From a virus (Duplodnaviria > Caudoviricetes), in IMG/VR virus record IMGVR_UViG_3300004481_000017, positions 3,924-67,923 of that record: a DNA stretch of 64,000 bases; one strand, written 5' to 3'. Numbering within the stretch: position 1 is the stretch's first letter; each line of letters starts with the position of its first letter. Positions 7,186 to 42,054 of this stretch are shown piece after piece. The position numbers were made by a program, and so were the translations under genes. The notes under the pieces are model-generated. The model worked only from the letters and a program-made list of their open reading frames with translations. It was not told the origin of the DNA and did not search any database.

Positions 7186-7202
7186 CCAGGGGAGGGAGCA
7201 GC

Positions 7203-8036
7203 GTGCCGATCAACACTCCGACCACGAGCCCAAGGCTCAAGCTGCACTACGGGTGGATCCCCGATCTGGACGATCCGCGCGACATGGAGCTGTCGGCAAG
7301 CCGTATCGGATCGATGGATGGCGTTGTGCGCGATGAGATGGACAACTCGTCGCTCTTCCGGCCCATCTCGAACCAGTCTTCTCACCCATCGTGCCAGTCG
7401 AACGCGACGGCAGACGCATGGGAGTCGGCCGAGATCGTGCAGCGACTGGAGCAAGGCAAGAGCCTAGAAGAGGCGATTGCCGAGACGGCTGACCTGTCGC
7501 GCATGTTCATCTGGTTCAACGCGCGCCAGCTCATGGACCCGCCAGCCGGCTACGACGCGACGAGGGGGTGCTTCAACCGGCTCGCGATGGATGTCATCCA
7601 TCGACACGGCGTGTGCACCGAGAAGACCTGGCCCTACATCGCCGAGAACGCGGCGCGTCGACCGTCCATCAAGTCGTACCGCGAGGCAATCTACCACCGA
7701 AGCGCAGGCTTCTACGCGATCAGTGAGACGAGCGACGCTCGCCACGGTCTGATTCGCCTGGCGCTCGCCAACAAGCACTCGGTCGTATTCGGAACGCACC
7801 TCGGCGAGGAGTGGCGGAGCTACAAGTCGGGCGTGCTCGACATCCCTAGGACCAAGATCATCGCGGGACATGCGATGGTGATCTGCGGCTGGTCGAAGTC
7901 GCGAGGCGCCTACAAGGTGAGAAACTCGCACGGCACCGGCTTCGGTGAAAACGGGAACCTGTGGATGAGCCGCAGGTACATTTGCGACTACGAGAAGACC
8001 CGCTCGCTCTGGGTGCCGACCTACCTGCCGCTCTAG
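7203..8036 (+). CDS. Papain-like C1 cysteine peptidase
   Basis: GTG 7203 after GGAGG; YGWIPD..D.RD, NQSSHPSCQSNA (Gln/Cys), GHAMVICGW (His), VRNSHG.GFGENG (Asn). Confidence 0.9.
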   Translation: MPINTPTTSPRLKLHYGWIPDLDDPRDMELSASRIGSMDGVVRDEMDNSSLFRPISNQSSHPSCQSNATADAWESAEIVQRLEQGKSLEEAIAETADLSRMFIWFNARQLMDPPAGYDATRGCFNRLAMDVIHRHGVCTEKTWPYIAENAARRPSIKSYREAIYHRSAGFYAISETSDARHGLIRLALANKHSVVFGTHLGEEWRSYKSGVLDIPRTKIIAGHAMVICGWSKSRGAYKVRNSHGTGFGENGNLWMSRRYICDYEKTRSLWVPTYLPL

Positions 8037-8045
8037 GAGAACGCC

Positions 8046-8378
8046 ATGCGAACCTTCACCCTCGTTGCGGCGATCGTGTCCACGCTGGTCATCTCGGCGA
8101 CGTGTGGGCCCGACCACGAGGACCCGGCTCCCCACGTGACGCCGGTGCCAGGTGTCGAGCTGTGCGACGAAGCTTGCGCTCGCATGGCCGTCGTAGGGCC
8201 CGATGGCGGCTCTTGCGAGGAAGCAACGCCCGTGGAGCTGCCGGATGGCGGTTCGATGAGCTGCGCCGACTTCTGCGTGTACCAGCACTCGAACGGCGTC
8301 TACTGGAACACCGAGTGCCTGACTGCCATCAACGACTGCTCCGAGATCGAGTCGGTCTGCAACGTGCCGCCACCATGA
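8046..8378 (+). CDS. Cys-rich secreted protein or lipoprotein (110 aa)
   Basis: Hydrophobic signal ending ISATC, then eight further Cys; SD AGGAG. Confidence 0.75.
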   Translation: MRTFTLVAAIVSTLVISATCGPDHEDPAPHVTPVPGVELCDEACARMAVVGPDGGSCEEATPVELPDGGSMSCADFCVYQHSNGVYWNTECLTAINDCSEIESVCNVPPP

Positions 8379-9247
8379 GAGCCCTCGTCCTATCCGGTGG
8401 AGGCTCCCACGGGGCCTATCAGGTTGGGGTGCTCCGCGCCCTCGCCGAGGCCGGCGTCGAGGACTACAAGCTCATTTGCGGCGTCAGCGTCGGCGCCCTG
8501 AACGCCGGCTTCCTCGCGCAGTACCCGCTCGGGGAGTTCGAGCAGGCCGTCAACGACCTCGCGAAGTTCTGGCGAGGTTTGACGACCCGCTCGATCTACA
8601 AGACGCGCTCTTTCGGCATGCTGAGCGCGCTCTGGAGCCCGAGCGTGTTCGACAGCCGTCCGCTCCAGAAGCTCGTGCGAGCCATGTACGACGCGGATCG
8701 GATCGAGCAGAGCGGTAAGCTCCTGCGCATCGGGGCCGTGTGTTGGGAGACCGGCGAGTACCGAGCGGTGAACGAGCAGTCCCATCCGCTCGTCGAGTGG
8801 ATTTTGGCCTCGGCAAGCTACCCGGTGTTCTTCGAGCCCATTCGCATCGAAGGCTTGAACTGGTCGGACGGCGGGCTCCGGAACGTGACTCCCATCGCCG
8901 ACGCGCTGGAGTCTGGCGCCAACGAGGCTGACGTCATCGTTGCCGAAAACACCGAGCGTGTCGGCGCGTGGTCCGGCGACGGAAAGAACGCGATGCCGGC
9001 GTACTTCGAGCGCGGCTTCTCCATCGTGATGAAGGAGCTTGCGCACAACGACTTGCAGGTCGTTGGTCTCTCGAACGAGTACGTCAAGCGCGTGGCGCCC
9101 TACGATAGGTGCAAGGTAAGAGTCGTCGAGCCGAGCGTGGAGCTGGCCGGAGGTTCGCTGACGTTCGATCCGGATGACATCGCGACGAACATGGAGCTTG
9201 GCTACGAGGACGGTCTGCGCTTGGCCGCCACCGCCATGCTCGCGTAG
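8375..9247 (+). CDS. Patatin-like phospholipase
   Basis: ATGA overlap; LSGGGSHG, GVSVG (GxSxG), DGG. Confidence 0.92.
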   Translation: MRALVLSGGGSHGAYQVGVLRALAEAGVEDYKLICGVSVGALNAGFLAQYPLGEFEQAVNDLAKFWRGLTTRSIYKTRSFGMLSALWSPSVFDSRPLQKLVRAMYDADRIEQSGKLLRIGAVCWETGEYRAVNEQSHPLVEWILASASYPVFFEPIRIEGLNWSDGGLRNVTPIADALESGANEADVIVAENTERVGAWSGDGKNAMPAYFERGFSIVMKELAHNDLQVVGLSNEYVKRVAPYDRCKVRVVEPSVELAGGSLTFDPDDIATNMELGYEDGLRLAATAMLA

Positions 9248-9260
9248 ACTTGGTGACGAT

Positions 9261-10712
9261 ATGTCCACACGAGCAAACTGCAGCAACCGCTACAAGCCGT
9301 GGCTCCTTCCTGGCACAGGATCGGGCCCGGCTCCGAGCGGCGATGCGCTGCTCGCTGTGCCGAACATCGCCGCGCTCATGGCGCTCGACACGACGACCAT
9401 CGACGATGGCGGCGTTGTGGCCGTCAAGAGCGTCATGGACGAGTTCATGCTCGACAAGACGAGCACGCTCGTCGCCGACGGCATCACGGTGGTGCCGGCA
9501 TCGGGTGGTGGAAACTGGCTCCGGCTGGAGATCCCGAGCCAGAAGTGGCTCCTGCAGCCGACGTTCTACATCGACCCCATCATGGGCAACGACGAGAACA
9601 CGGGGCTGACGGCGGGCGTGCCCCTATCCACCTTCGCGGAGTGGAAGCGGCGGGTCGGCACGCGGCTCGAAATTCCACAGACGCTCTACATCCAGAACGA
9701 TCTGACCGAAGACCTGCTGTTCGACATGGACAACGAGCAGGTCTACGTGGTCGTTCAGGGCGTCCGCACGGTGCTTTACTCGGGCACGGTCACGGCAGCG
9801 CAGGTCTGGAGCCCGAGCGGCCCGACGACCGATGGTCAGGTAACGGACGCGGCGATCCCCGTGAGCTGGACGGCGAGCGGCCTCGTCGACAAGCTGCTCG
9901 TTCTCACGTCGGGTCCGTCTGCTGGGGCGGCCGGATGGGTGGCGAAGGATCTCGGTGCCAAGACGGCGCGCTACAGCCCCCTCATCGACGCGAACACCTA
10001 CGCCACATACGATTTGGCGATTGCTGATACCTTCGACGTAGTCGATCTGACGACCGTGAATGGTGACTTCGTGGTGGTTGGGGCGTGCCAGGTAATCCCG
10101 ATCGACCTGTCGTTCCGAAGCCCCCTTGGCAGTGATGTGTTCAAAGCGCGCGGTCCAAGTCAGGTGTTCCCGATCTACTGCGACATCGAGATGCCGTTCA
10201 TCGGCGTCGAACAGTCGTCCTACGTGGATTTTATCGGGTGTCGTCTGAAGGGGACCGTCAACCAGTTCATCTTCGTCGTCGAATCAGGCACATGCTACCT
10301 CGACGCCTGCCTGATGAAATCGTACCTGCGCTGCCAGCGTGCAGGGGTAGCCGTGTGCACGGTCAAGACGCTTGCCCAGGGCGATGTCGGCGGACCGTGG
10401 GTCGGCATCAGCATGCTCTCGAACGGCTACCTAGCCATTCAGGAGTGGTACGCCATCTACGACGAGCCGACGACGGGACCGGCGCTACGCAACGACGGTG
10501 GCATGGCCGGGCTCTACGACTACCTGTGGGGCAACGGGGGCGCTTCCAGCTTCGGCGTGCTCGTGTTCGGAGCGAGCAGCGTCGTCTACACCCAAGTGCC
10601 GACGTACGGACCGGCTGTAGTCCAAGACACGTCGATCGGTGGCCTTCAGCGTCCGTACGCAAGCTTGCCGGTCCATAACGCTTCCAAGATGTGCGGGATC
10701 GTACAGCGATGA
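9261..10712 (+). CDS. Tailspike/fibre-like protein with probable beta-helix (483 aa)
   Basis: N-terminal DDGG..V..DGITVV..SGGGNWLR tailspike-type motif; FYIDPIMGND.N.G...P..T beta-helix entry motif. Confidence 0.65.
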   Translation: MSTRANCSNRYKPWLLPGTGSGPAPSGDALLAVPNIAALMALDTTTIDDGGVVAVKSVMDEFMLDKTSTLVADGITVVPASGGGNWLRLEIPSQKWLLQPTFYIDPIMGNDENTGLTAGVPLSTFAEWKRRVGTRLEIPQTLYIQNDLTEDLLFDMDNEQVYVVVQGVRTVLYSGTVTAAQVWSPSGPTTDGQVTDAAIPVSWTASGLVDKLLVLTSGPSAGAAGWVAKDLGAKTARYSPLIDANTYATYDLAIADTFDVVDLTTVNGDFVVVGACQVIPIDLSFRSPLGSDVFKARGPSQVFPIYCDIEMPFIGVEQSSYVDFIGCRLKGTVNQFIFVVESGTCYLDACLMKSYLRCQRAGVAVCTVKTLAQGDVGGPWVGISMLSNGYLAIQEWYAIYDEPTTGPALRNDGGMAGLYDYLWGNGGASSFGVLVFGASSVVYTQVPTYGPAVVQDTSIGGLQRPYASLPVHNASKMCGIVQR

Positions 10713-10879
10713 TGATCGAAGCCGAATCCCACAGCCAGGTGGCGGCGCTCCGAGAGGAGCACCCGGACGCAACCATCGTCGTCATCGACCACAAGAAGCG
10801 GACGGTGTACCGTCCGCATGGTCGCCCATTCATGATGCCGAAGGATGGAGTGCCCAAGGCCCGCGTGAAGAAGAAGTAG
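10709..10879 (+). CDS. Small basic hypothetical protein (56 aa)
   Basis: ATGA overlap with the upstream stop; fills the gap. Confidence 0.55.
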   Translation: MMIEAESHSQVAALREEHPDATIVVIDHKKRTVYRPHGRPFMMPKDGVPKARVKKK

Positions 10880-10889
10880 GAGAAGCTCC

Positions 10890-11294
10890 ATGCCAGAGTG
10901 GCTCGCGAACATGTGGATCTGGGCACAGGCGAACCCGTGGACGACGCTTGCGATCGTCGTCTACCTCATCGTGAATTTCGCTCCTCGGCCACACCCGGCA
11001 GAGCACACGGGCTGGGCTCGGATGTTCTGGCTCATCGTGGACCGCCTTTCCGTGCTGACGGCTGGCAGCGTTCCAGGCAAGCTCAAGATGCTTTTCGCTG
11101 GCTCGCCGCCGGCCGCTCCTGCCCCGACTGCTGCCAAGCCGAAGAAGCCGAAGGCGCAGAAGAAGAAGGCCGAGGATCCGAAGGCGGAGCCCGAGAAGCC
11201 CGCCGACGAGCCGAAGAAGGATGACGAGCCCGACGTCGAAGTCGACGGTCCGGGCTCGGGCGACAACCAAGGGAAGGACGGGTCAGGAACATGA
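10890..11294 (+). CDS. Membrane protein, holin-like, with charged C-terminal tail
   Basis: Hydrophobic WTTLAIVVYLIVNF and MFWLIV segments; K/E/P-rich tail; SD AGGAG. Confidence 0.6.
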   Translation: MPEWLANMWIWAQANPWTTLAIVVYLIVNFAPRPHPAEHTGWARMFWLIVDRLSVLTAGSVPGKLKMLFAGSPPAAPAPTAAKPKKPKAQKKKAEDPKAEPEKPADEPKKDDEPDVEVDGPGSGDNQGKDGSGT

Positions 11295-11758
11295 GTGGTG
11301 GAATTGGAATGGGCATCTTCGAGAACAGCGCCCTCGGCGAGCACGACACGGTCGTGCACCGAGTGCGGAAGGACGGCGTGGCGCTGGAGTTTGCCTGCCG
11401 CGGATGTGCGGTGCCGAAAGAGGTCGTTCTCGAATGGCCCGAGGTCATCGCGCTGAAGTACGGCATCGATCCAGCACTCGCGTTCCGTTCACAACAGAAC
11501 ATCATCACGCGCCCGACGCATTTCGAGTTCAAGGCGGACGAGGGCGGGTGGGTCCCCGAGCTGCGGTGCCCGACTTGCGACTTCGCCCTCGCCGTCGTCG
11601 TCGGCCCCGACGAGCCCGAGCGCTGGCTCGCTTCGGCGCGTCGCTCGAACGCCGTCAGCCCGCAGCTGGAGCAGCAGCTCTCGAACTACGTTGCCCGGAT
11701 CGCAAACGCGGCGCGAGCCCAAATGCAGTCGGCTCGCCAACCACAACGGCTCGGCTAG
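11291..11758 (+). CDS. Zn-ribbon protein (155 aa)
   Basis: CRGC and CPTC pairs; ATGA overlap. Confidence 0.7.
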   Translation: MSGGIGMGIFENSALGEHDTVVHRVRKDGVALEFACRGCAVPKEVVLEWPEVIALKYGIDPALAFRSQQNIITRPTHFEFKADEGGWVPELRCPTCDFALAVVVGPDEPERWLASARRSNAVSPQLEQQLSNYVARIANAARAQMQSARQPQRLG

Positions 11759-11764
11759 CGTGCC

Positions 11765-12307
11765 GTGCGCAAGTACGAGGTCGAACGGCTGATCCTGGAG
11801 CCGCACTTCCACGCGGTTCGGGACACGTTCGCCTCGCACGTGCCGGACGGTAGCGGACCACCGCTCGCCGACCTATCGAAGACGGAGTTCTTTGTCGACC
11901 AGGCCGTGCGCACGAGCGACCGGCACTTCGCGGCATGTCGCGAGGACGGCCGGCTCATCGTGCTCGCCCCCCAGGCGGTGGATCTCGACCTCGACACGCT
12001 CGTCGCCATCCTGGCGCACGAGTTTGGCCACGCGGCCGACTTCGCGTACCCAGGCGACTGGATGCTGCTTCACCCCGGTGATGAGGAGCAGCACGTCATC
12101 TGGGTACGCGGGCTCGACGATCCGAGGGCAGACAAGTGGCGCTCGTCGCTTTGGCGAGAGCGCGGGCGTGACGAGATCGAGATGACGGCCGATGCCATCG
12201 CCGAGGCCGTGACGGGCCATCGCATCATGTACTGCGGCGGCTGCACGCTTCAGTGCTTCCACGGTCCCGAGGTCAAGCACACGCGGCGACCGGAGGGGCT
12301 GCGATGA
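11765..12307 (+). CDS. Zincin-like metallopeptidase domain protein
   Basis: AILAHEFGHAAD (HExxH) plus downstream EMTAD.IAE. Confidence 0.7.
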   Translation: MRKYEVERLILEPHFHAVRDTFASHVPDGSGPPLADLSKTEFFVDQAVRTSDRHFAACREDGRLIVLAPQAVDLDLDTLVAILAHEFGHAADFAYPGDWMLLHPGDEEQHVIWVRGLDDPRADKWRSSLWRERGRDEIEMTADAIAEAVTGHRIMYCGGCTLQCFHGPEVKHTRRPEGLR

Positions 12308-13221
12308 AGTACAGGCCGAACAAGTTTCGGGCGAAGCCAGAAGTGCACGCTGGCGAGACGATGGGAGGCGTCCACAGCCACCCCGGGTTCCACACGACAG
12401 GAACCATGGAAATTGCCGCCTGCTACGCGCAGGCAAAGACCGTGTCGCACCCGTGGACGCTGTTCCCGAAAGCGGACAAGCCTCTTGCCGACTATCCGGT
12501 CATCGTGACGCTCGACATGGATGGGCTTGTCCCACTATCCGACTACGACGCCGAGAGGCAGATTTGGCCGAAGGTGCGCGACGTGCTTCTGGAGTTCTTC
12601 CGCATGAACCCAGATGCCGACAGGCGAACCCTGGAAAACTGGCTTGAGGTCGACGTTTCCGAGGGGCGTGATCCGATGGGTCGCGGGTATCCTTCGGGGA
12701 GCGCGCTCTTCACGATCGCTTCATGGCGAGTCGAGAACCCGTATGGAGCGCTCCACGACTTCATCGACGGGTGCCCGTGCGAGGAAGTGATGGCGCTCCT
12801 GCGCTCGCTAGTCGAGTCGGATGGCAAGCCCACGGATGAGGTGCTCTGCGCCCTGGCGGACCAGTACCGCTACGTCGAGGACATCGCAGAAAGTCGCGTC
12901 GCAAGCGTTCACTACATGAAGCCGTTCTGGCCGGAGCTGCTCGACTACCAGGCGGATGAGTGGGACGAGGGTGAGCCTGCGCCGAAGGAGTCCGATGCCG
13001 AGCTTTCGGAGACGCTTGAAGCTCTCGGCTGGTCTGTTCTCGACGTCGAGGACGTCTACAACGAGACCGCCCGCGTGGTGACCACCGAGGTCTACTCGTC
13101 GCGCAAAAAGTCCAAGCGCCCCGAGTACCACGGCACGAGCTACCGAAACCTTCTTTCGGCGGCGCCGCGCCTCGGAAAGAAGCTCCCCGTCCCGCCGCCC
13201 CCATACCGAGGTGCCCCGTGA
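12304..13221 (+). CDS. Putative ADP-ribosyltransferase-fold protein, apparently circularly permuted
   Basis: PGFHTT...A..YA, PVIVTLD, QYRYVEDI..SRV, with EYHGTS..L at the C-terminus. Confidence 0.5.
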   Translation: MKYRPNKFRAKPEVHAGETMGGVHSHPGFHTTGTMEIAACYAQAKTVSHPWTLFPKADKPLADYPVIVTLDMDGLVPLSDYDAERQIWPKVRDVLLEFFRMNPDADRRTLENWLEVDVSEGRDPMGRGYPSGSALFTIASWRVENPYGALHDFIDGCPCEEVMALLRSLVESDGKPTDEVLCALADQYRYVEDIAESRVASVHYMKPFWPELLDYQADEWDEGEPAPKESDAELSETLEALGWSVLDVEDVYNETARVVTTEVYSSRKKSKRPEYHGTSYRNLLSAAPRLGKKLPVPPPPYRGAP

Positions 13222-13427
13222 AAGCTCTCGACTACGCCGCGTTCTCCGTCGTGCTCGTCGCCGGTGTCGGCGTCGGCCACTACGTCGCCAAGGCCGTGCA
13301 TGAGCAGTCGACGCCCGAGGATGCGAACACGCTTCTTTGGATGGGAGCGTTCACGCTGGGAGCTGCCGGCGCGGCCTACCTGCTCAACGTCAAGCAGAAG
13401 ACCGTCGCCGACGTGATCGCGAAGTAG
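13218..13427 (+). CDS. Small two-TM membrane protein (69 aa)
   Basis: Two hydrophobic Gly/Ala-rich segments; GTGA overlap. Confidence 0.75.
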   Translation: MKALDYAAFSVVLVAGVGVGHYVAKAVHEQSTPEDANTLLWMGAFTLGAAGAAYLLNVKQKTVADVIAK

Positions 13428-13439
13428 TGGGGGGCTGCC

Positions 13440-14414
13440 GTGAAACCGGATCTGGTCACGACGCTGCCCGATGAGCGGCTACTGCGCCCGAGGGATCTCG
13501 CCCCGAACCCCGACGTGCTCCCAAAACCGTTTGGGCGCTACGCGAAATTTCTCGTCCGAACCGGACTCATCGTGAATCAACGGCGAGGCGAACGATGGCA
13601 CGCTTTGACGCCTCGCAGCCTGTATCCGCTCGCTCTGTGGCTAAGCACCAAGCCTCCGGTGAGCGTCATGGCGATGACCGACGTGAACAAGCGGATCGTG
13701 GCCGTTCATCGTGCCGCCCCTGGTTTTTCGGAACCGGCCGGCAGAGCCATGGTCCTGTCCGCGATCACTGCTGCTAGCCATGCGTTTCTGGCAGAGTCGT
13801 CGACTGAGGACGAGCCTGGCGACCGTGTGATCGACTCGCTCAGAGACGCTGAGCGAGAAATCGACTGCTCCCCTGTCACCGTGATCGACTCGTTCGCCGT
13901 TGGACGAAAGCAATACCTCTCGGCGGTCGATAACTGGTCAAGCCACCCGTTGAGCCGTAGCATTTCGGACGAGGAGGAGTCGATGCTGGACCGTCTGGAA
14001 AACGAGTTTGACGCCAAGTGCGTGCTTGCTCGAAGCGCTCGTTGGTCCGGGGCTGCCGGCCCCATGTTTTCAGAGAGGCTGCTGTTGGAGGCTTGCCAGC
14101 ACATGACCTTCGACGACCAGGAAAGCATGGTCGGCTTGTCGTTCAGCGAAAAAGGACGGCTGGTTGCAATCAACGAGGCGGCCCGCGGCGCAGCGGAACA
14201 CGTGACCATAGGCCCGAGGGATTTGGTCAAAATCCCCTTGCTGACGGGCGCATCCGGACTCGCCGTCGTGCACAACCACCCGAGCGGTGTGGCTCTTGCG
14301 AGCGAGGAGGACGTGGAGATGAGTAAAAGGCTACGAACGCTCGCGAGCTGTGTCGGGGTCGAGTTCATCGGCTCCTATGTCGTCGGCCGGGATACGGGTC
14401 TCGTGAAGGTGTGA
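13440..14414 (+). CDS. RadC-like JAB/MPN domain protein with long unknown N-terminus
   Basis: C-terminal QESMV...VHNHPSG.ALASEED (E..HxH...S..D). Confidence 0.85.
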   Translation: MKPDLVTTLPDERLLRPRDLAPNPDVLPKPFGRYAKFLVRTGLIVNQRRGERWHALTPRSLYPLALWLSTKPPVSVMAMTDVNKRIVAVHRAAPGFSEPAGRAMVLSAITAASHAFLAESSTEDEPGDRVIDSLRDAEREIDCSPVTVIDSFAVGRKQYLSAVDNWSSHPLSRSISDEEESMLDRLENEFDAKCVLARSARWSGAAGPMFSERLLLEACQHMTFDDQESMVGLSFSEKGRLVAINEAARGAAEHVTIGPRDLVKIPLLTGASGLAVVHNHPSGVALASEEDVEMSKRLRTLASCVGVEFIGSYVVGRDTGLVKV

Positions 14415-15387: not shown

Positions 15388-15714
15388 ATGAGCGACACGG
15401 CAAAGACGCTGGACAACATCGCCGACAAGCTCGGCCAGGCTTCGGGAGCGCTATCGCTGACGGGCATCCCGGCCATGATCGCTGCCATCGGCGCCATCGT
15501 GCTCAAGAGCGCGGCGGCGTTCGTGCGCCTCGGCAAGGACCCCGTCGTCGAGATCCAGCGCATTCACGACGCGGACCCGATGCTCAAGGCGGTCCACGAC
15601 GAATGGGCGAAGACCATCGCCGAAAAGTTCCCGCCACCGAGCGAGCCGGCGAGGGCCAGAGATACCTTGCCAGCCGGGGCTCCGCTCAGCGAAGATCCAT
15701 ACGAGGACGGCTGA
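15388..15714 (+). CDS. Membrane protein (108 aa)
   Basis: SD GGAGG; hydrophobic IPAMIAAIGAIVL. Confidence 0.7.
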   Translation: MSDTAKTLDNIADKLGQASGALSLTGIPAMIAAIGAIVLKSAAAFVRLGKDPVVEIQRIHDADPMLKAVHDEWAKTIAEKFPPPSEPARARDTLPAGAPLSEDPYEDG

Positions 15715-17544: not shown

Positions 17545-20500
17545 GTGGTTGCGGCTGTCGATGACCCGTACCAGAAGGGCGTCACTCGCTCCGAGCTGAC
17601 GCTTGGCAGGATTGGCCAAGCGTGGTCGATGCGTGGCAACGGCCGCAGGTTCGTGCGATCACTGAGCGGATTTCTGTCCTCGGGCGGGAGCCGCTACACC
17701 GAGCGGACGTACGCGTACGCCGTGCTCGGCTTCTGGGAATGGCTCGACTCGACGGGGCGCGGGCTCCCGACCCCAGACGAGCTGTCACGCCAAGACGCCG
17801 TGTCCTACGAGCGGTGGCTGCGCGAGTCCGGCGAGAACCTCATTCGCTACCGTTTGGCGGCCGACCCGGCCCGCGAGATGGATCTGGCGATCTACGATTT
17901 CGTCGTCGTGAACGATGGCACGCGGATCGACGACATCCGGGCAGCTCTTTTGTCGACCGGGCGGTTCTCGTACGCCGGTCGCCTGAACGTCGATGAGACG
18001 TGCAAGGGCGGCCTGCACCGCTATCTCGGCGCTATGGTCATCAACAAGGTCCTGCGCCGGGAGCCGACCATCACCGAGCTGCGGAGCATCCGAGAGTACC
18101 GAGACGTCATTCTGAGCGGCGACGTCACCAAGGTGTTTCGGTACTACCCCGAGAACGGTTTTCGCACCTCGGACGACCGCGTGTGCGGGAACGCGACCCG
18201 GATCGGCGTTCTCGGGGCGTTCTGGTCGTACATGGCTTCCCAGGGGGAAAACCTCCCAGGCTCGTCCGAGCCGCTCATCCGGTTCAACATCTGGGAGCCG
18301 GTGCTCAAGCGCGTCCGTGAGCAGGCGGCGAGTCACCAGGCCGAGCGCCGGATGTCGAAGACCCCGGAGGGGGATCTGTTTGCTCGGGTGCTCGCGACGA
18401 CCTACCGCTCATCGCACGGCGACCGAGCGCTCGAAGCGGCCGAGGCGGCCATCCGCGGCGAGGTGATCCCAAGCAGCCGGGGAAAGTTCGCGGACCTTCG
18501 GGACCGGGCCCTCTTGCTCGTCATGCTCCAGGCCGGCGGACCTCGGGCGAGCGAAGTGCAGCACATGCGCCGGGCTGACATCTCCGACGACTTGTCGACG
18601 CTAACCATCCGAGGCAAGCGGAACAAGATCCGCACGGTCCCGGTCCCGCCCGCGGCGGCTGACGCCATCGCCAGGATGACCGCCCGGATCGTGAGCGTCA
18701 TCGAGCGACGACGTGCCCAGGGCAAGAACGCGAGCCGCCTCGAAGAGCTGCTCTACGCCGAGGCGCCGCTCCTGCCGGCCATCCGGTACTGGGGCGCGAA
18801 CAGGGGCGCCGACTCGTCCTGCGGGCTTACCAGGGCCGGCATTGCCATGCGCCTGCGCCACTTGGCCCAGGAGGCCGGGCTCCAGCCAGGCAGCACCGAG
18901 TTTTCCCAGATGCACCCGCACGGCGTCCGTCGGCTATTCGCCCGCCAGCACATGGCCATGGGCACCCCCCTGAACGTCCTCCAGGCGCTCATGGGGCACG
19001 CCTCGGGCGCCACCACCTTGCGCTACGCCGAGGAGCGGAGCGTCGAGGCCCTGCGGACGGCCGCCTTCGGGGCGTCAAGGCCGACCGAGGAACGCCTAGG
19101 CTTGGTCCGGGGGCCAAGGGCGCCCGCTGCCGAGGTGGCCGCTCCTGAGCCTGCCAGGCGCCTCCCTGAGCCCACAGAGCCTTCCGTGGAGCGGGAGCGC
19201 CCCGTCAGGCAGCCCATGGCCGAGCCCCAGGTCGTGAAGGTCGTCCGTGAACAACCGAGACCGTCACGGCGAGCGGTGCCGAAGCTCGGACCACCGCCCG
19301 AGGCGTGCGTGGCCATATCACCTGTAGGTGCGTTGCGTACACTGTGCGAGGTGTACGAAACGGACTGGGGCGAGCGCGGCAACCGGACGAGGTTCAAGTA
19401 CGGCAAGGGGCTCGAAGAGCTGAAGGGCTCGTCCGAGACGGCTGTTGCGATCCAGATGGCGCCGGTCGAGCAGGTTGGCGCCGAGCTGGAGGTATTCGGG
19501 GAGTCGAAGCGTCTGGAGCACACCTACGCCGGCCGGGAGACGGGGCTCGTCTGGTGGTTGGGCACCATCGGCTACCTGCGGCCCGAGATGCCCGTCGCCT
19601 CGGTGCGGCAGATCGGGGAGCAGTGCGGACCCGAGACCCGGTCCGGGCTCTGCGATGCCCTGGTCGGCCTGTGGTCGGACTGGAATGACGACGACTCGAA
19701 GGGACCGACGGCAGCCGGCGCGCTCGGCATGTGGGTAGCGGAGTTCTTGGAGACGGCAGCGCAGATCGACCGGGAGATCACTTTGCGCGAGGGCTACTGG
19801 GTCGAGCACTCGTCGCCCATCGAGGAAACGGTGCTTGGCGGGACCAAGCGGGAGCCCGAGACCCGGATCGTGTTCCGCGAGCACGACGAAGCGCGCATCG
19901 TCGACTGGTTCAAAGAGGTCGGCTGGCAGTATCGGGTGAGCGTGGCTCGGCCGAAGGAAAGCGATCTGCAGATCAAATCATTCAGGACGACGAAGGTCAT
20001 CGACACGCCGCTGGAGGTGCCCGACTGGTACGGGCTCGAAGATCCGCTCGCAGCGATGAGCGCTTCGGAACGGGACGAGGCCATCGATCTGGTCTTGGCG
20101 CTCACACGTGGCGTGCTCGCCGACCGGACCCCGAGATGGGGTGCCATGAGCCGCAAGGCAGCAAGCGATCTCATCCAGGCCATGATGGCTTACGACCGAT
20201 CGCTCGATGATCTCGGCGAGCTGAAAAACAGAGTGCGCATGGCCGGTGCCACGGCCGACGACAAGCAGACGAAGGGCGTCGCCGATCAAAAGCGGATCGT
20301 GGCCGACCTTGGTGTCAGGGCGACGATGGCGTTCCGAGCGCTCGGGGCTCCGGCCGACTTCGACCTCGTCAAGCTCACGGTCCAGCGCGCTCGGGTGCAG
20401 CGAGCAGCCGTCAAGGGCCGGCAAAGGCGCTGGGCATTCCACCTCGACATGCTGCGGCAGGCATTTGGAGACGGGCCTGCCGACGACCCGTACGTCGCTC

Positions 20501-21108
20501 TCGCCGCCAGGCACTCGGACGATCCGCCGCTCGGGTCGACGACGTCAAGGGATCTGCTTGACCCGGATCCGGCCGCCGGGACCATCCGTCATCGGGCGGA
20601 GTTCAAGAAGCAGTGGGCCAAGGACCATGGAACGCACAGCGAGTGCGTGGCCAGGCGTCTCGCTCGACACATGTACGAGCTGTTCGTTGCGTCGAGCGGT
20701 CGGGGACCGTTTGCCCGACGTGACGTGCTCATCCGGTACGTGACGAGCATGTACTCCTACCGGGTGCCCTGCCCGGCTGCCATGGAGCGGGAGCTGCGTG
20801 CACTTTTGCGCTACGAGGACGTCAAGATCCCGATCTACGAAAAGTGGCGTGCGGCATTCGGGACCGCGGAGAAGCCGAAGCCAACGCCGAAGGAGCTTCC
20901 GGCCGGGGCGACGTACGAGCCAACGCTGGCCGAGCTGGAGGAAGAAGAAGAAGAAGAGTTGCGCTCCAAGGAGGTGAGGGAAATTTTCTCTGAATTGGAG
21001 GGTGTGTTCAACCAGAACCCCGGTTCCCTGCCTCGGAGCAAGGCGTCGAGCGCGCTACCTCACCCGTTGCTCACGCTCATGCTGCTCTTGCCGTTCATCC
21101 CGCCGTAG
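17545..21108 (+). CDS. Giant tyrosine recombinase/integrase fusion (1187 aa; start uncertain)
   Basis: RDRALL..GGPRASEV, RGKRNKIRTVP, HPHGVRR, LMGHAS..TTLRY (Tyr codon 19024-19026), then ~690 aa of unknown sequence. Confidence 0.9.
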   Translation: MVAAVDDPYQKGVTRSELTLGRIGQAWSMRGNGRRFVRSLSGFLSSGGSRYTERTYAYAVLGFWEWLDSTGRGLPTPDELSRQDAVSYERWLRESGENLIRYRLAADPAREMDLAIYDFVVVNDGTRIDDIRAALLSTGRFSYAGRLNVDETCKGGLHRYLGAMVINKVLRREPTITELRSIREYRDVILSGDVTKVFRYYPENGFRTSDDRVCGNATRIGVLGAFWSYMASQGENLPGSSEPLIRFNIWEPVLKRVREQAASHQAERRMSKTPEGDLFARVLATTYRSSHGDRALEAAEAAIRGEVIPSSRGKFADLRDRALLLVMLQAGGPRASEVQHMRRADISDDLSTLTIRGKRNKIRTVPVPPAAADAIARMTARIVSVIERRRAQGKNASRLEELLYAEAPLLPAIRYWGANRGADSSCGLTRAGIAMRLRHLAQEAGLQPGSTEFSQMHPHGVRRLFARQHMAMGTPLNVLQALMGHASGATTLRYAEERSVEALRTAAFGASRPTEERLGLVRGPRAPAAEVAAPEPARRLPEPTEPSVERERPVRQPMAEPQVVKVVREQPRPSRRAVPKLGPPPEACVAISPVGALRTLCEVYETDWGERGNRTRFKYGKGLEELKGSSETAVAIQMAPVEQVGAELEVFGESKRLEHTYAGRETGLVWWLGTIGYLRPEMPVASVRQIGEQCGPETRSGLCDALVGLWSDWNDDDSKGPTAAGALGMWVAEFLETAAQIDREITLREGYWVEHSSPIEETVLGGTKREPETRIVFREHDEARIVDWFKEVGWQYRVSVARPKESDLQIKSFRTTKVIDTPLEVPDWYGLEDPLAAMSASERDEAIDLVLALTRGVLADRTPRWGAMSRKAASDLIQAMMAYDRSLDDLGELKNRVRMAGATADDKQTKGVADQKRIVADLGVRATMAFRALGAPADFDLVKLTVQRARVQRAAVKGRQRRWAFHLDMLRQAFGDGPADDPYVALAARHSDDPPLGSTTSRDLLDPDPAAGTIRHRAEFKKQWAKDHGTHSECVARRLARHMYELFVASSGRGPFARRDVLIRYVTSMYSYRVPCPAAMERELRALLRYEDVKIPIYEKWRAAFGTAEKPKPTPKELPAGATYEPTLAELEEEEEEELRSKEVREIFSELEGVFNQNPGSLPRSKASSALPHPLLTLMLLLPFIPP

Positions 21109-21754
21109 GCTTCTGACGTTCGAGCGCGTAGTACGTTGCGAGACCGGCAGCGACGCACGCTCCGAGCCCCACGAGCAGTGGAACGGCAACGGAGGGCTCT
21201 TCCCTGGGCTCGGGGCCGGGGCCAGGCTGCGGCGTCGGCGGGAAGGAAGGCTCGTGCTTCATCCCGAGCCACTCGAAGAAGCTCGTCTCGCCGTCGGCTC
21301 CTGCCTTCAGGAAGGAAAAGTGGACGTGGTTGGTGTGAGGGTCATCGCCCGTGTACGGCTGCCAGTACGGGCGCCAAGCGTACCAGGACTGCCGGTTCCA
21401 AATCATGTAGGCGAGGCCGGCCCGCCGAAACATCGCGTACTCGTTCCCGTCCTGGTCTGGGGAGAGTAGCCACCCGATCAGCGAGTCGACTCGCTCGACG
21501 TCGTCTTGGTCGAATGCGCTGACCATCCAATCCCAAGCCCTTCCGGCGTGGTGCTGACTCGTTCCGCTATCTCCAGAGCAGGAACGTGTGATGCCTCCAA
21601 GCCCGCCGCCAAGAGCAGAAACGACCCAGTCGCGGAAAGATACAACACCTGGCTTTGGTGTCGGATCGCATGGGATCGGCTCGTTCCGCTGCGCCAGCGG
21701 CTCTGGCTCGCATCCCATCTCGGACGTCGATGGGATCACCGGGAGCGAAATCAT
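21095..21754 (-). CDS. Peptidoglycan metallopeptidase-like protein (M15/ARB-07466-like) with C-terminal TM anchor
   Basis: CDPTPKPG..F, SQHHAGRAWDW, YMIWNRQ.W, YTG.DPHTNHVHFS; Pro-rich linker and TM. Confidence 0.75.
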   Translation of the reverse strand: MISLPVIPSTSEMGCEPEPLAQRNEPIPCDPTPKPGVVSFRDWVVSALGGGLGGITRSCSGDSGTSQHHAGRAWDWMVSAFDQDDVERVDSLIGWLLSPDQDGNEYAMFRRAGLAYMIWNRQSWYAWRPYWQPYTGDDPHTNHVHFSFLKAGADGETSFFEWLGMKHEPSFPPTPQPGPGPEPREEPSVAVPLLVGLGACVAAGLATYYALERQKPTAG

Positions 21755-22598: not shown

Positions 22599-24317
22599 AT
22601 GATCCAAGGAAGGGTCACCAAGGTCCGTCGCCGAGAAGACGGAAACTACGCCGTCACGATCGGGACGAACGGTCGCACCGTCGTCTGGATGCTGAGCGCC
22701 GAGCCACTACGCCTTGGCGAGCGGGTTCAGTTGACGCCGACGCACGTGAGCGAGATGCGCGTCGCGACCCAGAACACGCCTGGCAAGGTGCTCGTCGTGA
22801 GCGGTGGGGAGATCAAGGTGCTGGCCGAGCCGTTCGCTCGACGCATGGTCGCCCCCCGTTGGTACGAGGCGGTCGGCCAGGCTATGCGCCGGCCCCTGTT
22901 CGCCTACCAGCTCGAAGGGGCCGCCTGGCTGGCTTCCAGGCTCGCCCCTGGCGGGGGCGCCATCCTGGCCGATGAGCCTGGGCTCGGCAAGAGCGCTCAG
23001 GCTGTCGCAGCCGTCACGTCGATCGGAGCGTTCCCGTGCCTACTTGTTTGCCCGGCGACACTGAAGCAGGGCTGGGAAACGGAGCTTGCCTACTCGATCC
23101 GCGACTTGGTCGTGCGGCAGGTCGAGCACGAGCAGGGCGATCTTCCGCCGGCCCACGTGCTTGTCCTGAACTACGACTTGCTGCGTGCTCGGGAGAGCCA
23201 GCTTCTCTCGTACCGCTTCCGGTGCATGATCATGGACGAGGCACACGCGTTGAAGGAGCCCGTGCCAACGAAGAACCATCGGGCTGCCGTGGCCACGCGC
23301 CTTGCTGCGTCCATCCGGCGGGTCGCTCTCCTCACGGGCACGCCCATGCTCAACGTGCCAGAAGAGCTGTGGCGTCTGCTCCACATCGTAGATCCGGTGG
23401 AATGGCCGAGCTTCGCCGAGTTTCGCCAGCACTACTGCCTGGCGCCTCCTGGCGAGGAGGATACCACCGAGGAACAGCCGAAGGGTCCTGACGCACCACG
23501 CATCTACAACGTCGAGGATCTGCGGGTACGCCTCGATGTGGCCATGCTCCGACGTACGAAGTCCGAGCTGCTCAAGCAGCTGCCGCCCAAGCGACGCGTG
23601 TCGGTCGTCGTGGATCTCGAACCGGCCGACAAGGCTGAGTACCTGCTCGCCGAAAAGAGCGTGGTCGACTGGCTCGTCGGGCTCGGAGCTTCTAGCCTCG
23701 CCGAATCGGCGTCACGAGCCGAGGCCCTCGTGCGGCTCACGATGCTTCGGCACATCGCTGCGAGGGGCAAGCTTCGCAAGGCCGTGCCGACGTTCCTTGC
23801 CCAGTGGATCCGGCTACGCGGAAAGGAGCCCCTGCTCGTGTTCGCGTTCCACGTGGACGTCATCGCCGGCATCACGCGCATCTGCCGACGGCTCGGAGTC
23901 CAGACGAGCTGCCTGCACGGACAGCAGACCGCTGACAAGCGATCGGCCCAGGTTCTCGCGTTCCAGACAGGCCGATCGCAGGTGCTCGTGGCCCCACTAC
24001 GCTGCGGCGGGCTCGGGCTGAACCTTCAGCGCGCCTCGAACGTGCTCATCCTGGAACGGCTTTGGACGCCGTCGCTCATGGAGCAGGCCGAGGACCGCTG
24101 CCACCGGCTCGGGCAGACCCGAGAGGTCGTTGCGCACTACCTAGACGCTCGTCACACCGTGGACGAGCACGTCGCCGCCGTCAGCTCGCGCAAGCAAGAG
24201 CTGATTGATCGGATTGTGGACGACGTAGAGGAGTCTGCCGAAAACGAAGAGCAAATCGAGACGCTCCAGGCCGTCGCCGACCGCCTTCGGTCTTCTGGTT
24301 CGGCAAGCGCTGCGTGA
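22599..24317 (+). CDS. SNF2/SMARCAL1-like helicase
   Basis: LFAYQLEG, ILADEPGLGKS, DEAH, LTGTPMLN, LRRTK, GLGLNLQRA, QAEDRCHRLGQ. Confidence 0.93.
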   Translation: MIQGRVTKVRRREDGNYAVTIGTNGRTVVWMLSAEPLRLGERVQLTPTHVSEMRVATQNTPGKVLVVSGGEIKVLAEPFARRMVAPRWYEAVGQAMRRPLFAYQLEGAAWLASRLAPGGGAILADEPGLGKSAQAVAAVTSIGAFPCLLVCPATLKQGWETELAYSIRDLVVRQVEHEQGDLPPAHVLVLNYDLLRARESQLLSYRFRCMIMDEAHALKEPVPTKNHRAAVATRLAASIRRVALLTGTPMLNVPEELWRLLHIVDPVEWPSFAEFRQHYCLAPPGEEDTTEEQPKGPDAPRIYNVEDLRVRLDVAMLRRTKSELLKQLPPKRRVSVVVDLEPADKAEYLLAEKSVVDWLVGLGASSLAESASRAEALVRLTMLRHIAARGKLRKAVPTFLAQWIRLRGKEPLLVFAFHVDVIAGITRICRRLGVQTSCLHGQQTADKRSAQVLAFQTGRSQVLVAPLRCGGLGLNLQRASNVLILERLWTPSLMEQAEDRCHRLGQTREVVAHYLDARHTVDEHVAAVSSRKQELIDRIVDDVEESAENEEQIETLQAVADRLRSSGSASAA

Positions 24318-24539: not shown

Positions 24540-25274
24540 CTAGGACCCGCTCCCATGTTGCAGCTGGCGCGACTGTGACTCAAGACGCTGCCCCACGTTG
24601 ACCCGCCTGCCGCTCTGGCGTCCGTCGTTGTACGTGTCGAGGTAGACCATCGGCGTGCGCATCCGATGGTCCTTCGCGTCGCCGATGATCTTGTCCCGCA
24701 GAGCCGTCGACTCGTCGAGAAGGCTCGCAAGAACGATGGCGGCGCTCTGACCACGCGGATTCGGCTCGTGCTCTTCGGCAGCCTGTTTCTTGGCCTCTCG
24801 TAGCTGCTCGTGGACGCCAACCGCGAATCCGAGCAGCCAGTCGTTGCGGCGCTTCTGGACGTATCCCTTTGCTGCGCAAATCCGCTGGGACTCGACCAGG
24901 AGCCAGCTGTAGAGTGCTCGTGCTGCCTGCGTGTCGCCTTCGCGCCCGCACATGATGATGCTCACCTTGCGCTCGAAGAAGCCTGGACCGCGGGACGTGT
25001 TCGTGCGCAGCCAGAACGCCACCCCGAGATGCCCGCAAACGGCGCTGGCAAGCTCGGTGCGCCAGCGGCACATGCGGCCGAATGTTTCGAGCGGCTCGGC
25101 GTCGACCATGGCCGACGTCTGGGAGACGTCGTCCTCGATCGAGGCCAGGTCTAACTGGTGCTTGGTGAGAAGCTTGCCGAGTCCGAATGCTGCCGCCTTC
25201 GCTTCACCCTCAGTGGCGGCACGACGTTGCAACCGCAGCAGGTCACGGACCTTCTTGAGTACGGATTGGTCCAT
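24540..25274 (-). CDS. DUF2786-type protein
   Basis: VLKKVRDLLRL....TEGEAKAA....KLLTKHQL N-terminus; WLLGFAVGV near the C-terminus. Confidence 0.8.
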   Translation of the reverse strand: MDQSVLKKVRDLLRLQRRAATEGEAKAAAFGLGKLLTKHQLDLASIEDDVSQTSAMVDAEPLETFGRMCRWRTELASAVCGHLGVAFWLRTNTSRGPGFFERKVSIIMCGREGDTQAARALYSWLLVESQRICAAKGYVQKRRNDWLLGFAVGVHEQLREAKKQAAEEHEPNPRGQSAAIVLASLLDESTALRDKIIGDAKDHRMRTPMVYLDTYNDGRQSGRRVNVGQRLESQSRQLQHGSGS

Positions 25275-26367: not shown

Positions 26368-26823
26368 CTAGCTCCAGTCGCAATAGTCTGCGACGTGCGA
26401 CATGATGGCGTTGTCGTTTGGGTTGCAGCTGCCTTGCAGGCAGCTCAGCCACTCCTGCGGCGGATTGCCGTAGCCCCATGTGCACCAGTAGAAGTCACAC
26501 GCAAGGTCCATCGACCCGAGCGTCGTCGCAAAAATGGCACCGTCGCCGCACGCGTCCTTGGCTTCTGGCGTCCACAGGGCAGACATCGCTTCGCAGCGCC
26601 CGAGCGCGCCGAACATGAACCAGCAGTCGAGGTCGGCCTCGCAGGCGTCCATCTCGGCGGCGCACTGGCCCCCGCCGATGGTCGCGATGCAGTCGAGGCA
26701 CGGCCAGCCGAGCGACAGCTCTCGGGCTGGAACCCAGTCGTCTTCTGGCGGCTCGTACGTTTCCTCGGTCGTGCAGGCCGCAACGGCCAGCAGCGCGGAG
26801 AGGGCGAGCGGGTATCGGGTCAT
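26368..26823 (-). CDS. Cys-rich lipoprotein (151 aa)
   Basis: MTRYPLALSALLAVAAC lipobox; CLDC..C..EMDAC..D.DC pattern; ATGA overlap with the SNF2 stop. Confidence 0.85.
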   Translation of the reverse strand: MTRYPLALSALLAVAACTTEETYEPPEDDWVPARELSLGWPCLDCIATIGGGQCAAEMDACEADLDCWFMFGALGRCEAMSALWTPEAKDACGDGAIFATTLGSMDLACDFYWCTWGYGNPPQEWLSCLQGSCNPNDNAIMSHVADYCDWS

Positions 26824-28511
26824 CGCGAAGCTCCTTGGTCCGATGGCTGCTCGATGGCAGCGTTGATGATGCTGATCTTGTGCCGCAGGATCTCGTGTAC
26901 GCGCCGTTCTAGCGCGTGGTCGCTCACCATGACGCTTACCAGGATGCTGTCGGCTGCCTGTCCGATGCGTCGCACGCGGTCGACCGCCTGTGCGTTCTCG
27001 GAGGGGACCCACGAGAGATCCACGAAGAGTACGTGGGAAGCACGTGTGAGCGTGAGCCCGTAACCGCCAGCCCGAATGGTCAGCCCTACGCCTCGCAGGT
27101 TTCCATCTTGGAACATGCGCACCGTTTCGTGCCGCGTTGCCGGCGACTCGTCGCCCGTGATGACGGCCCACCCATCGCGGCCTCGCAGGGCGTCGATGGG
27201 GGCGCGGTGCGCGCTGAACACGAGTAGTGGCGTCTCGGTTTGCTCGTACTGCTCGACAAGCGCGATGGTGTCGGCGACCCGCGACGCGGCAAGCGCGGCT
27301 CGTACTCTGGAAAGCGCCTCGAAGGGCGGCAGATCGTCGGCCTCGAACCGAGATCGCCAGCGCGACCATTCGTCGTCGAGCACTCGCGTCAGCTCGTCGT
27401 CGGGCCGACCCGTGGTGATACGAGCCCACCGAACAGCGGGCAGATCGGGCAGCACCTCCTCCTTCAGCCGCCTGAGCATCACGCGTCGAAGCTTTCCTGG
27501 CGTCTCGGGCGATGGTCTCCCAAACACGAGCCCACCCCACTTGTTCGTCGAGCCGTCGAACAGCTTGACGAAGGCAGGCCAGCCGCCAAAAGCTTCTTGG
27601 GCGAGCCCCGCCGCGTTGAGCAGCCCCCATAGGTCAAGGGGGCGGTTCATCATCGGCGTGCCCGACAGGAACCAGCACGCCGAGGCCGACCGCTGGAGCG
27701 CGATGATCGCTCTCGTGCGCGCCGCTTTGCGGTTCTGGGCCATCGTGGCCTCGTCGACCACGAGGTGCGCCCCGGTGAGCTGGTACTCGGGCGGCAGCTT
27801 GGCGAGTTGCTCCCCCTTCTTCGGTGCCGGGACCGATGGCAGTAGATCGTAGTTGGTGATGAGCAGCTCACCAAGCTTTGGTACGCGGAACGAGCCCTTG
27901 CCAGCGAGCACCTCTGGCTTGAGGTCAGGCCGCCATCTCGCACACTCGTCCGCCCAGTTGTACTTGAGGCTCGCTGGGCAGACGACCAGGCATGCGACCT
28001 GCTCGGGCAGCGCCACGAGCGCTTGAGGTGTCTTGCCAAGTCCCATCGAGTCCGCCAGCAGCGCCCTTGCACGGGAGCGCAGCCAAAGCACGCCGTCGGC
28101 CTGGTACGGGTAAAGCCCCAGCTCGACGAGCGCCTTGCGCCGTGGATCTTGGTCGGCCAGTAGCTCCGGGGCAATGGCGAGCCCGAGGCGCTTGGCGACT
28201 TCGAGCACCTTGCGCTTACTTGTGCCCATGACAGACACGCGCCAGCACTTCTCGGCGGCGTCCCACCGGGCGCCGGGTAGGGCTCGCAGCGTTGAGATCA
28301 GCTCCTTGTCGTAGGGCATGAAGATTTGCCCATCGGCGGTCAGCTCCTTGCGGGCAAAACGACTTTCGGTCTCGCGGACGAGCGCCAGGCACGGGGCGGT
28401 GTCGCACGAGAGCTGCCACTCCCAGCCCTTCGGTCGGAAGGCCCAGCCGTTGCCGACGCCGACGGGGGTCCCGCAGTAGGTGCAGATCCCTGGCTTCTTG
28501 TTGGGGAACAT
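26820..28511 (-). CDS. SNF2 helicase with N-terminal Zn finger and HARP-like domain (motif II reads DEAT)
   Basis: CTYC..C; MPYDKELI..L..LPGARWDAAEKCWRV; LYPYQ, LADSMGLGKT, VVDEAT, SGTPMMN, QAVDRVRRIGQ. Confidence 0.92.
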   Translation of the reverse strand: MFPNKKPGICTYCGTPVGVGNGWAFRPKGWEWQLSCDTAPCLALVRETESRFARKELTADGQIFMPYDKELISTLRALPGARWDAAEKCWRVSVMGTSKRKVLEVAKRLGLAIAPELLADQDPRRKALVELGLYPYQADGVLWLRSRARALLADSMGLGKTPQALVALPEQVACLVVCPASLKYNWADECARWRPDLKPEVLAGKGSFRVPKLGELLITNYDLLPSVPAPKKGEQLAKLPPEYQLTGAHLVVDEATMAQNRKAARTRAIIALQRSASACWFLSGTPMMNRPLDLWGLLNAAGLAQEAFGGWPAFVKLFDGSTNKWGGLVFGRPSPETPGKLRRVMLRRLKEEVLPDLPAVRWARITTGRPDDELTRVLDDEWSRWRSRFEADDLPPFEALSRVRAALAASRVADTIALVEQYEQTETPLLVFSAHRAPIDALRGRDGWAVITGDESPATRHETVRMFQDGNLRGVGLTIRAGGYGLTLTRASHVLFVDLSWVPSENAQAVDRVRRIGQAADSILVSVMVSDHALERRVHEILRHKISIINAAIEQPSDQGASR

Positions 28512-41585: not shown

Positions 41586-41740
41586 GTTGCTTCCCTCCGT
41601 TGCCCCGTCGTGGGGCGCAGCATGCCCGCGAGTCGTGCTCACGAGCATGCGGCGCGCCGCGCCGTTGCCGGAAAACCGACTCCCGCACCGCCGGCACGGC
41701 GTGGGCTCGGACCGTCTAGGGCCAATCCATCGGAACCTCC

Positions 41741-41823
41741 GGTCGCATCGCCAGGGATCGAACCTGTACGCCGGCCACCCGAGCGGGCGGGACTTCCGCG
41801 TCCCCTTTTCGCCAGCCGATGCG
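41741..41823 (-). ncRNA. tRNA-like element or pseudo-tRNA (class II scaffold, no canonical anticodon arm)
   Basis: 7-bp acceptor CGCATCG/CGATGCG; T-arm CAGG-TTCGATC-CCTG; D-arm TGGCG-AAAAGGGGA-CGC; ends ACC(G). Confidence 0.55.
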
Positions 41824-41968
41824 ATTCGCGGCTCGGTAGGGTGCCGGCCGCGCTGTACCTGTTAGCTCGCTCCGTTCTGCGCTTGCGCGCCGTTGTGCCC
41901 GTGGCGCTCTATGCTGCCGCGGTATTGCTGCCCGCCGACTTTCGTCGCCGTGCTTACGAACGCTGCTA

Positions 41969-41988
41969 TCCGGTGGCGACCCGGTTGC
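41969..41988 (-). repeat. 20-bp motif, degenerate copy (15/20)
   Basis: GCAACCGGGTCGCCACCGGA. Confidence 0.55.
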
Positions 41989-42042: not shown

Positions 42043-42054
42043 GAACCGCGGTGC

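Follow-up and report, generated by a model that had tools for sequence, protein, structure and literature searches.

A giant tyrosine recombinase with a conserved C-terminal module and a candidate dif-like site in a lineage of large tailed phages

The recombinase gene and its domains

The gene at positions 17545-21108 (plus strand) of a 64,000-nucleotide (nt) stretch of tailed-phage DNA was analysed. This stretch, called the window throughout, covers positions 3,924 to 67,923 of the IMG/VR record IMGVR_UViG_3300004481_000017, a 67.9-kb virus record with a completeness of 54% according to CheckV. Open reading frame (ORF) analysis showed 1187 uninterrupted codons with zero internal stops. The product matched the Pfam family PF00589 (Phage_integrase) over residues 316-497 with a score of 66.1 bits, the cut-off being 27.1 (E 4.2e-18). 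A first-pass annotation, made from the letters of the sequence, had described a single tyrosine recombinase ORF of 1187 amino acids (aa), and this description was confirmed. The parts of the gene, and a candidate recombination site elsewhere in the window, are as follows.

17545-21108, plus strand: giant tyrosine recombinase gene, GTG start, 1187 aa, stop included, with full-length homologs
17635-17835, plus strand: first two helices of the core-binding (SAM-like) domain, residues 31-97, from model secondary structure and alignment with 3nrw, 2kd1 and 2oxo
17860-18162, plus strand: predicted winged-helix domain inserted in the core-binding domain, residues ~106-206
18169-18459, plus strand: later helices of the core-binding domain and link to the catalytic domain, residues 209-305, from the model and structural alignment
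18460-19059, plus strand: catalytic domain with R334, K358, H459, R462, H485 and Y494, from PF00589, the XerD profile and invariance
19060-19308, plus strand: linker rich in proline (17 of 83 aa, residues 506-588), differing in length among homologs and lowest in conservation and occupancy
19309-20859, plus strand: conserved C-terminal module, residues 589-1105, from the AlphaFold2 model, conservation and 96 phmmer clusters
20560-20859, plus strand: sub-domain of basic helices holding a putative His2Cys2 metal site, motifs TIxH, HSECVARR and VPC
20860-21105, plus strand: variable acidic stretch (poly-Glu 20938-20958) and conserved C-terminal peptide (21010-21105)
42056-42115, no strand assigned: candidate recombination site, an 11-6-11 inverted repeat (42088-42115) with a direct copy of the word (42056-42066)

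Nine full-length relatives (1136-1371 aa, identity 94-31%) were recovered by a word-indexed search and could be aligned end to end. An exhaustive phmmer search of 1.84 billion cluster representatives, with only residues 521-1187 as query, returned 96 clusters, nearly all of 1100-1400 aa and matched at about 500-1170; the short sequences among them resemble fragments. The giant recombinase was located at 12 viral and 40 metagenome loci. All the ORFs lying wholly within a contig at these 52 loci measure 1175-1431 aa, and each ORF below 1175 aa begins at a contig edge. Every complete copy of the module is fused to a recombinase, and none is split into two genes. Contigs of related strains from other studies span most of the recombinase gene and showed no frame-breaking indels. 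Their indels amount to 18 nt of gaps summed in one contig and one GAA insertion, confined to the variable acidic stretch, and positions 19072-19654 are covered gap-free. The first-pass annotation had held that a missed stop or frameshift after about position 19100, or homologs always split in two, would speak against a single gene; neither was seen. The unusual length is all that favours an assembly or frameshift artefact that fuses an integrase gene with an unrelated one downstream, and the 96 clusters of like architecture, the single complete ORFs and the intact strain contigs make such an artefact extremely improbable.

PF00589 was matched by all 40 homologs scanned, and the catalytic domain gave an XerD profile match of E 8.6e-26. 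PHROGs integrase families and NCBIfam Xer models also matched over the PF00589 stretch; the XerC, XerD and XerA equivalogs (TIGR02224, TIGR02225 and NF040815) reached 59-62 bits and stayed far below their cut-offs of 220-335. In the alignment, R334, K358, H459, R462, H485 and Y494 correspond to XerD R148, K172, H244, R247, H270 and Y279. Their codons lie at 18544-46 (R334), 18616-18 (K358), 18919-30 (H459-x-x-R462), 18997-99 (H485) and 19024-26 (Y494). All six residues are invariant in 58 aligned homologs and also in a set of 40. The XerD alignment and this invariance bear out the full catalytic set that had been read from the sequence at these positions.

The structure of residues 1-520 was modelled with AlphaFold2 using 58 homologs, giving a mean predicted local distance difference test score (pLDDT) of 90.9 and a predicted template modelling score (pTM) of 0.87. 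The model was compared with 48,161 Protein Data Bank (PDB) chains by VIA-align, and the ranking of structural matches by Foldseek was concordant. Both parts of a two-domain clamp, the helical core-binding domain and the catalytic fold, were found. Three isolated core-binding domains of other integrases (3nrw, 2kd1 and 2oxo) start to align at residue ~31-36 of the model and extend to ~260, yet no more than ~90-105 residues are aligned, which means that about 110 residues are inserted. Residues 106-206 of the model independently matched winged-helix domains in VIA-align. The modelled insert follows the order helix-strand-helix-helix-strand-wing-strand, and solved domains were matched across the whole of it. 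The winged helix-turn-helix-like insert of about 110 aa, suspected earlier in the N-terminal binding region, is therefore supported at the level of the predicted fold. The Pfam scan of 40 family members gave zero family matches for the insert and weak Phage_int_SAM matches in 14-18 of the 40. No arm-binding Pfam family, as would mark a heterobivalent (lambda-type) integrase, was matched; the clamp starts near residue 30, and a divergent small domain in the first 30 residues is possible.

As modelled, the recombinase core is of the 'simple' Xer/Cre type. The core-binding and catalytic domains would clamp the DNA, Y494 would form the covalent 3'-phosphotyrosine link and the winged-helix insert would probably make additional DNA contacts. 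The giant protein is very probably an active Xer/Cre-type recombinase belonging to a conserved giant family.

Y494 is followed by a short conserved segment and then by the 83-residue linker, where conservation is lowest in the protein and length differs widely among homologs. Residues 585-1187 were modelled with AlphaFold2 using 71 sequences (mean pLDDT 88.2, pTM 0.81). The predicted module consists of a small helical head (residues 589-640), an acidic Trp-rich alpha/beta part (656-868, isoelectric point (pI) 4.2-4.7), a long helical hairpin in the form of a coiled coil (869-933) and basic helical bundles (934-1105, pI ~9.7). The per-column information of its conserved cores equals that of the catalytic domain. 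The protein ends in the conserved peptide with the consensus NP...LPxP[LVI]xLL. The proline-rich linker, the poly-Glu run and the hydrophobic tip pointed out in the first-pass annotation are present at residues 506-588, 1132-1138 and 1171-1187.

The 693 residues past Y494 matched no family in Pfam, NCBIfam or PHROGs, in accordance with the extension of about 690 aa without recognisable motif described earlier, and the module gave no Pfam match in 40 family members. The Foldseek check that had been proposed for the C-terminal half was run on the model of residues 585-1187 and gave no match below E 0.09 in PDB or BFVD. VIA-align matched the helical hairpin alone, with generic coiled-coil matches. 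An ESM Atlas feature search with residues 585-1187 had a top score of 0.84, which is the noise level, and PDB sequence profile searches returned recombinase matches only and none for the module.

Four candidate metal residues were identified in the basic bundle, namely H1016 (20590), H1031 (20635), C1034 (20644) and C1076 (20770), each positioned at a helix start in the model. They are conserved in 70/71, 67/71 (Asp in 3), 71/71 and 71/71 aligned sequences, respectively. This His-His-Cys-Cys set is a candidate zinc or other metal site. Given the long flexible tether, the module is more likely a docking or control unit than part of the DNA clamp. A module tethered in this way would set when, and with which partner, the core fires, whether by docking a partner, controlling the synapse or binding additional DNA.

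A candidate dif-like site

Short-spacer inverted repeats were listed and the genomes were compared for common arms. The candidate site of the window lies within the divergent intergenic gap 41649-42117, where positions 42088-42115 form an 11-6-11 inverted repeat of the word CGTGACGrTAA; the same word is used at 88416-88443 of the related viral contig G001. The exact word has an expected count of 0.12 in the window and was observed three times, all within 60 nt (42056-42115). The layout, one 11-6-11 core with one to four further copies of the word, occurs once per genome in the window and in G001, G002, G004, G008, G012 and G016, that is, in seven giant-recombinase genomes. The further copies are mostly within about 50 nt of the core and on one side of it; G004 also has one about 90 nt off on the other side. 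The site forms the centre of a larger imperfect palindrome and is mostly found at a divergent strand-switch point. Positions 42055-42116 had been proposed as a recombination site in the first-pass annotation, and the proposal led to an element conserved across these seven genomes.

The words vary by genome (CGTGACGnTAA, CGTTAYGsTAA, CGTTACCATAA, CGGGCTCATAr and GGGGATCATTT), and the extra copies co-vary with the arms of their own core. The inner edge reads TA(A/G)-N6-TTA in six of the seven genomes, as in bacterial dif, and TTT-N6-AAA in G004; the outer arm bases vary. Tyrosine-recombinase core sites typically show this geometry, in which the arm centres are 17 bp apart and each genome has a single copy. 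G000 and G001 have the identical 11-nt word, yet the genes on either side of it are not conserved between them. Of the 10 contigs returned by a degenerate-site scan of 2.9 million IMG/VR viral contigs, five carry the giant recombinase; AT-rich arms characterise the remaining five, and all three of these that were checked are without the recombinase. No known sequence-specific DNA-binding domain was found in the other common proteins scanned.

A nested inverted repeat (ACGTGTAGG, 7-nt spacer, CCTACACGT) is present at 42067-42091, between the extra word and the 11-6-11 core; no counterpart was seen at the corresponding position of G001.

Other candidate sites were rejected. The palindromes adjoining the recombinase gene are terminator-like and not conserved, and the palindrome at 56678-56708 is inside an ORF and absent from relatives. 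In the latter, two perfectly inverted 14-nt arms are 3 nt apart (ATAGGTTGCCATCA / TGATGGCAACCTAT); the palindrome sits within the ORF 56073-57080 (minus strand), between ParB-like genes at 55274-56080 and 58208-59080, and has GGTTGCCA in common with a 20-nt gene-junction motif at 33761, 36609 and 42023. GC skew was also tried for placing an origin or a terminus at the dif-like site and was discarded, the genomes being inconsistent.

Family distribution and neighbouring genes

All the known relatives are metagenome-derived. A search of 185,579 species genomes, with patterns that 55% of the family members satisfy, revealed no true relative, which indicates that prophage copies are rare at best. 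In 50,697 phage and 72,556 plasmid records, tblastn with the protein gave no match at E 1e-5. The lineage is one of large, metagenome-only tailed phages of about 125-250 kb. Related viral contigs include G001 (144 kb), G016 (136 kb), G012 (140 kb) and G002 (182 kb, 73% complete); G001, which has a 123-nt terminal repeat, is rated complete, as are G012 and G016. Its own primase, helicases and tail proteins are encoded by G001. The giant recombinase is the sole PF00589 gene in all seven records G000, G001, G002, G004, G006, G012 and G016. No HK97 capsid family was matched in five relatives, the family model being narrow. The record G008 (locus L005; IMGVR_UViG_3300033388_008586; 41.7 kb) is labelled 'provirus' by IMG/VR, with no host flanks in the record, and its dif-like site at 15391-15418 is intact and internal.

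The recombinase gene closes a plus-strand block of about 24 genes and has a 14-nt overlap with the convergent gene that follows. With a 32-nt gap upstream and this overlap downstream, no non-coding DNA adjoins the gene in the window. The block holds a papain-like peptidase, a patatin and RadC. An earlier description of the gene as ending a structural/enzyme operon therefore stands for the block end and the enzymes; the structural nature was unsupported. Four conserved neighbours recur across loci: SNF2 helicases at 15, a 219-aa protein at 13, a UvrD helicase at 12 and a 287-aa protein at 8. The neighbourhood is made up of DNA-metabolism and conflict genes, with no recognisable structural operon.

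Several of these neighbours were observed individually. The papain-like peptidase, patatin phospholipase and RadC are stand-alone genes within 6738-14414. Two SNF2-family helicase paralogs (22599-24317, plus strand, and 26820-28511, minus strand) lie within 7.5 kb downstream, positions 21095-21754 encode a 219-aa product, and an SNF2 gene is found no more than 10 kb from the giant recombinase in 15 of 31 loci. The peptidase, patatin and RadC genes, taken with the SNF2 and ParB-like genes, mirror the 'polyvalent proteins' repertoire of phages and conjugative elements (PMC5512222). The conserved neighbour at 24540-25274 (minus strand) carries DUF2786 and DUF7168 and has homologs near the recombinase in G001 and at locus L009. 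In the 182-kb relative, the UvrD helicase close to the recombinase (L011:15078-18200, minus strand) has an N-terminal Hint and LAGLIDADG intein.

No tRNA gene adjoining the recombinase gene was found in the 20 loci scanned, which showed only phage tRNAs at least 2.6 kb away; one locus has a 12-tRNA array 2.6-8 kb downstream of the giant recombinase (L010:16913-22198). No host-type flank was recognised in the 52 loci, and no invertible segment between long inverted repeats was found.

In one sub-clade the recombinase is followed on the same strand by a gene of 121-247 aa with no Pfam family (L013:3199-3636, L014:11701-12177, L035:2629-3105, L052:3451-3933 and others). The spacing is -3 to +5 nt in seven loci, an apparent translational coupling, and this follower gene could be an accessory or directionality factor. 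A small downstream partner gene was rejected as a general feature, because it belongs only to this other sub-clade and is absent from G000 and the complete G001.

Possible role and relation to known systems

The favoured reading, for which the chances are about even, is that the recombinase has the phage's own genome as its substrate, recombined at the one dif-like site for multimer resolution or circularisation. Recombination at 42056-42115 with the help of the accessory arm copies would resolve replication multimers or circularise the genome. These functions are the best fit because the core is 'simple', the enzyme is the sole tyrosine recombinase, one site is present per genome and no copy turned up in the 185,579 species genomes. 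Among the multifunctional roles suggested in the first-pass annotation, resolution and circularisation are the part that fits best, given the simple core and single site, and telomere handling is unlikely. Virion packaging, which was suggested as well, stays a bare possibility for a gene set among DNA-metabolism and conflict-type genes.

Several points weigh against action on the phage's own genome at this site. The pairing of the recombinase with the site is itself a tentative one and somewhat less than an even prospect. The site lies 12-52 kb from the recombinase gene, and the co-occurrence of site and enzyme in one lineage may reflect shared descent. The divergent promoter region, the larger palindrome and an A-rich tract in G004 also fit an origin or operator array. 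The role proposed for the module is drawn by analogy, and the fold searches used the entire 603-residue module model, so that a known fold within a sub-domain could be missed. No ParA-type (AAA_31) partition protein was found, which leaves a P1-like plasmid prophage unsupported. The 'provirus' label of G008 would favour integration.

Integration ranks second after recombination of the phage's own genome and is sustained mainly by this label. The enzyme would then be a phage integrase for lysogeny that recombines attP with attB of a host; the dif-like site might be this attP, and the module would replace arm-binding or Xis-type direction control. The presence of a single tyrosine recombinase in each genome examined agrees with such a role, one site per genome suits attP as well as a resolution site, and 'simple' recombinases can be phage integrases, for example Brujita Int (PMC8138268). 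However, no true relative was found in the species genomes (at a pattern sensitivity of about 55%), the gene adjoins no attachment-type tRNA, and none of the 52 loci showed a recognisable host-type flank. The window lacks non-coding DNA beside the gene, the G008 site is intact and internal, and the genomes encode their own primase and helicases, one of them with a tRNA array. With these findings, an integrase for lysogeny is possible but doubtful.

Less probable is that the protein is a real recombinase which acts elsewhere or otherwise, the element at 42 kb being bound by another protein as an origin or operator array. That the element sits in a divergent promoter region and forms the middle of a larger palindrome points in this direction, as does the A-rich tract of G004. 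The enzyme could in that case, with the same low probability, serve in DNA processing in a replication/recombination module, in topoisomerase-like relaxation or in early-infection counter-defence, and the SNF2, UvrD, RadC, ParB-like, peptidase and ART-like neighbours are as in 'polyvalent protein' repertoires (PMC5512222).

The remaining readings, a telomere resolvase, a protein with regulatory function alone and an artefact, are unlikely. A DNA-binding regulator with the recombinase fold that has lost recombination, like MrpR/YopR/SroF, could act on the word array at divergent promoters. However, in place of the loss of catalytic residues seen in the MrpR/SroF repressors, all six, including the tyrosine nucleophile, are invariant in 58 homologs down to ~25-30% identity, which argues for chemistry being retained and makes a regulator improbable. 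Compared with the SPbeta-like repressors MrpR, YopR and SroF (PDB 8a0a, 9rd5), the giant family retains every catalytic residue and adds the module. A telomere resolvase (protelomerase) making hairpin ends on a linear genome, towards which the large size for a tyrosine recombinase and the palindromic site point, is very improbable.

The single-recombinase Xer and XerC/D systems (XerA-dif, XerH-difH, XerD; PDB 5hxy, 5jjv, 1a0p) are the closest known systems. The giant recombinase is four times longer than Xer and has the winged-helix insert and the module of about 600 aa. Xer systems have a chromosomal gene and a dif site at the terminus, whereas the enzyme described here is phage-encoded, would use a phage dif-like site and is not known to have an FtsK link. 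Cre of P1 has 343 aa without insert or extension, and its loxP is a 13-8-13 site beside cre, whereas the phage site is 12-52 kb from the recombinase gene and a ParA-type (AAA_31) partition ATPase was not found. TnpI is a small transposon resolvase without extension, and the internal recombination site (IRS) of Tn4430 on which it acts has an inverted-repeat core with direct accessory copies of the motif on one side. The likeness to TnpI-IRS is in the site layout only, the enzyme-site pair of the phages being a putative one.

Known tyrosine recombinases have two or three small domains. In their current classification the core-binding and catalytic domains stand alone or are preceded by an arm-binding or DUF3701 domain at the N terminus (PMC8138268). 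In the large serine recombinases (phiC31, Bxb1) a big C-terminal part with a zinc-binding domain and a coiled coil governs synapsis and direction (PMC8138268). The resemblance of the giant family to them is one of analogy only; the catalytic fold and serine chemistry are unrelated, no sequence or fold similarity was detected, and the zinc site of the module is a candidate one. The literature searched on large or giant tyrosine recombinases concerns unrelated elements only and does not describe a family of fourfold size whose conserved module has no known fold. The class of enzyme is a known one; the architecture is undescribed in that literature. The fold-level winged-helix insert, the His-His-Cys-Cys set, the unsplit complete copies and the core-plus-accessory site in seven genomes are new here.

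By analogy with the serine enzymes, it is conceivable, though on balance unlikely, that the family represents a new design class of 'large tyrosine recombinases', in which a tethered module of about 600 residues, with a zinc helical domain and a coiled coil, would itself control synapsis and direction at a core-plus-accessory site. The module may also couple the enzyme to the phage SNF2 translocase or permit delivery with the DNA. If the design-class reading is true, about 100 natural clusters would each have a predictable 28-bp site. Should the favoured reading be right, the candidate site would render the question of the enzyme's target open to direct bench testing, and the natural enzyme-site pairs, with at least four different arm sequences, would be candidate genome-engineering tools. 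That favoured reading would add a new mode of regulation to a very well-studied enzyme class, and it would account for the maintenance of genomes as monomers or circles in this lineage of large, uncultured phages.

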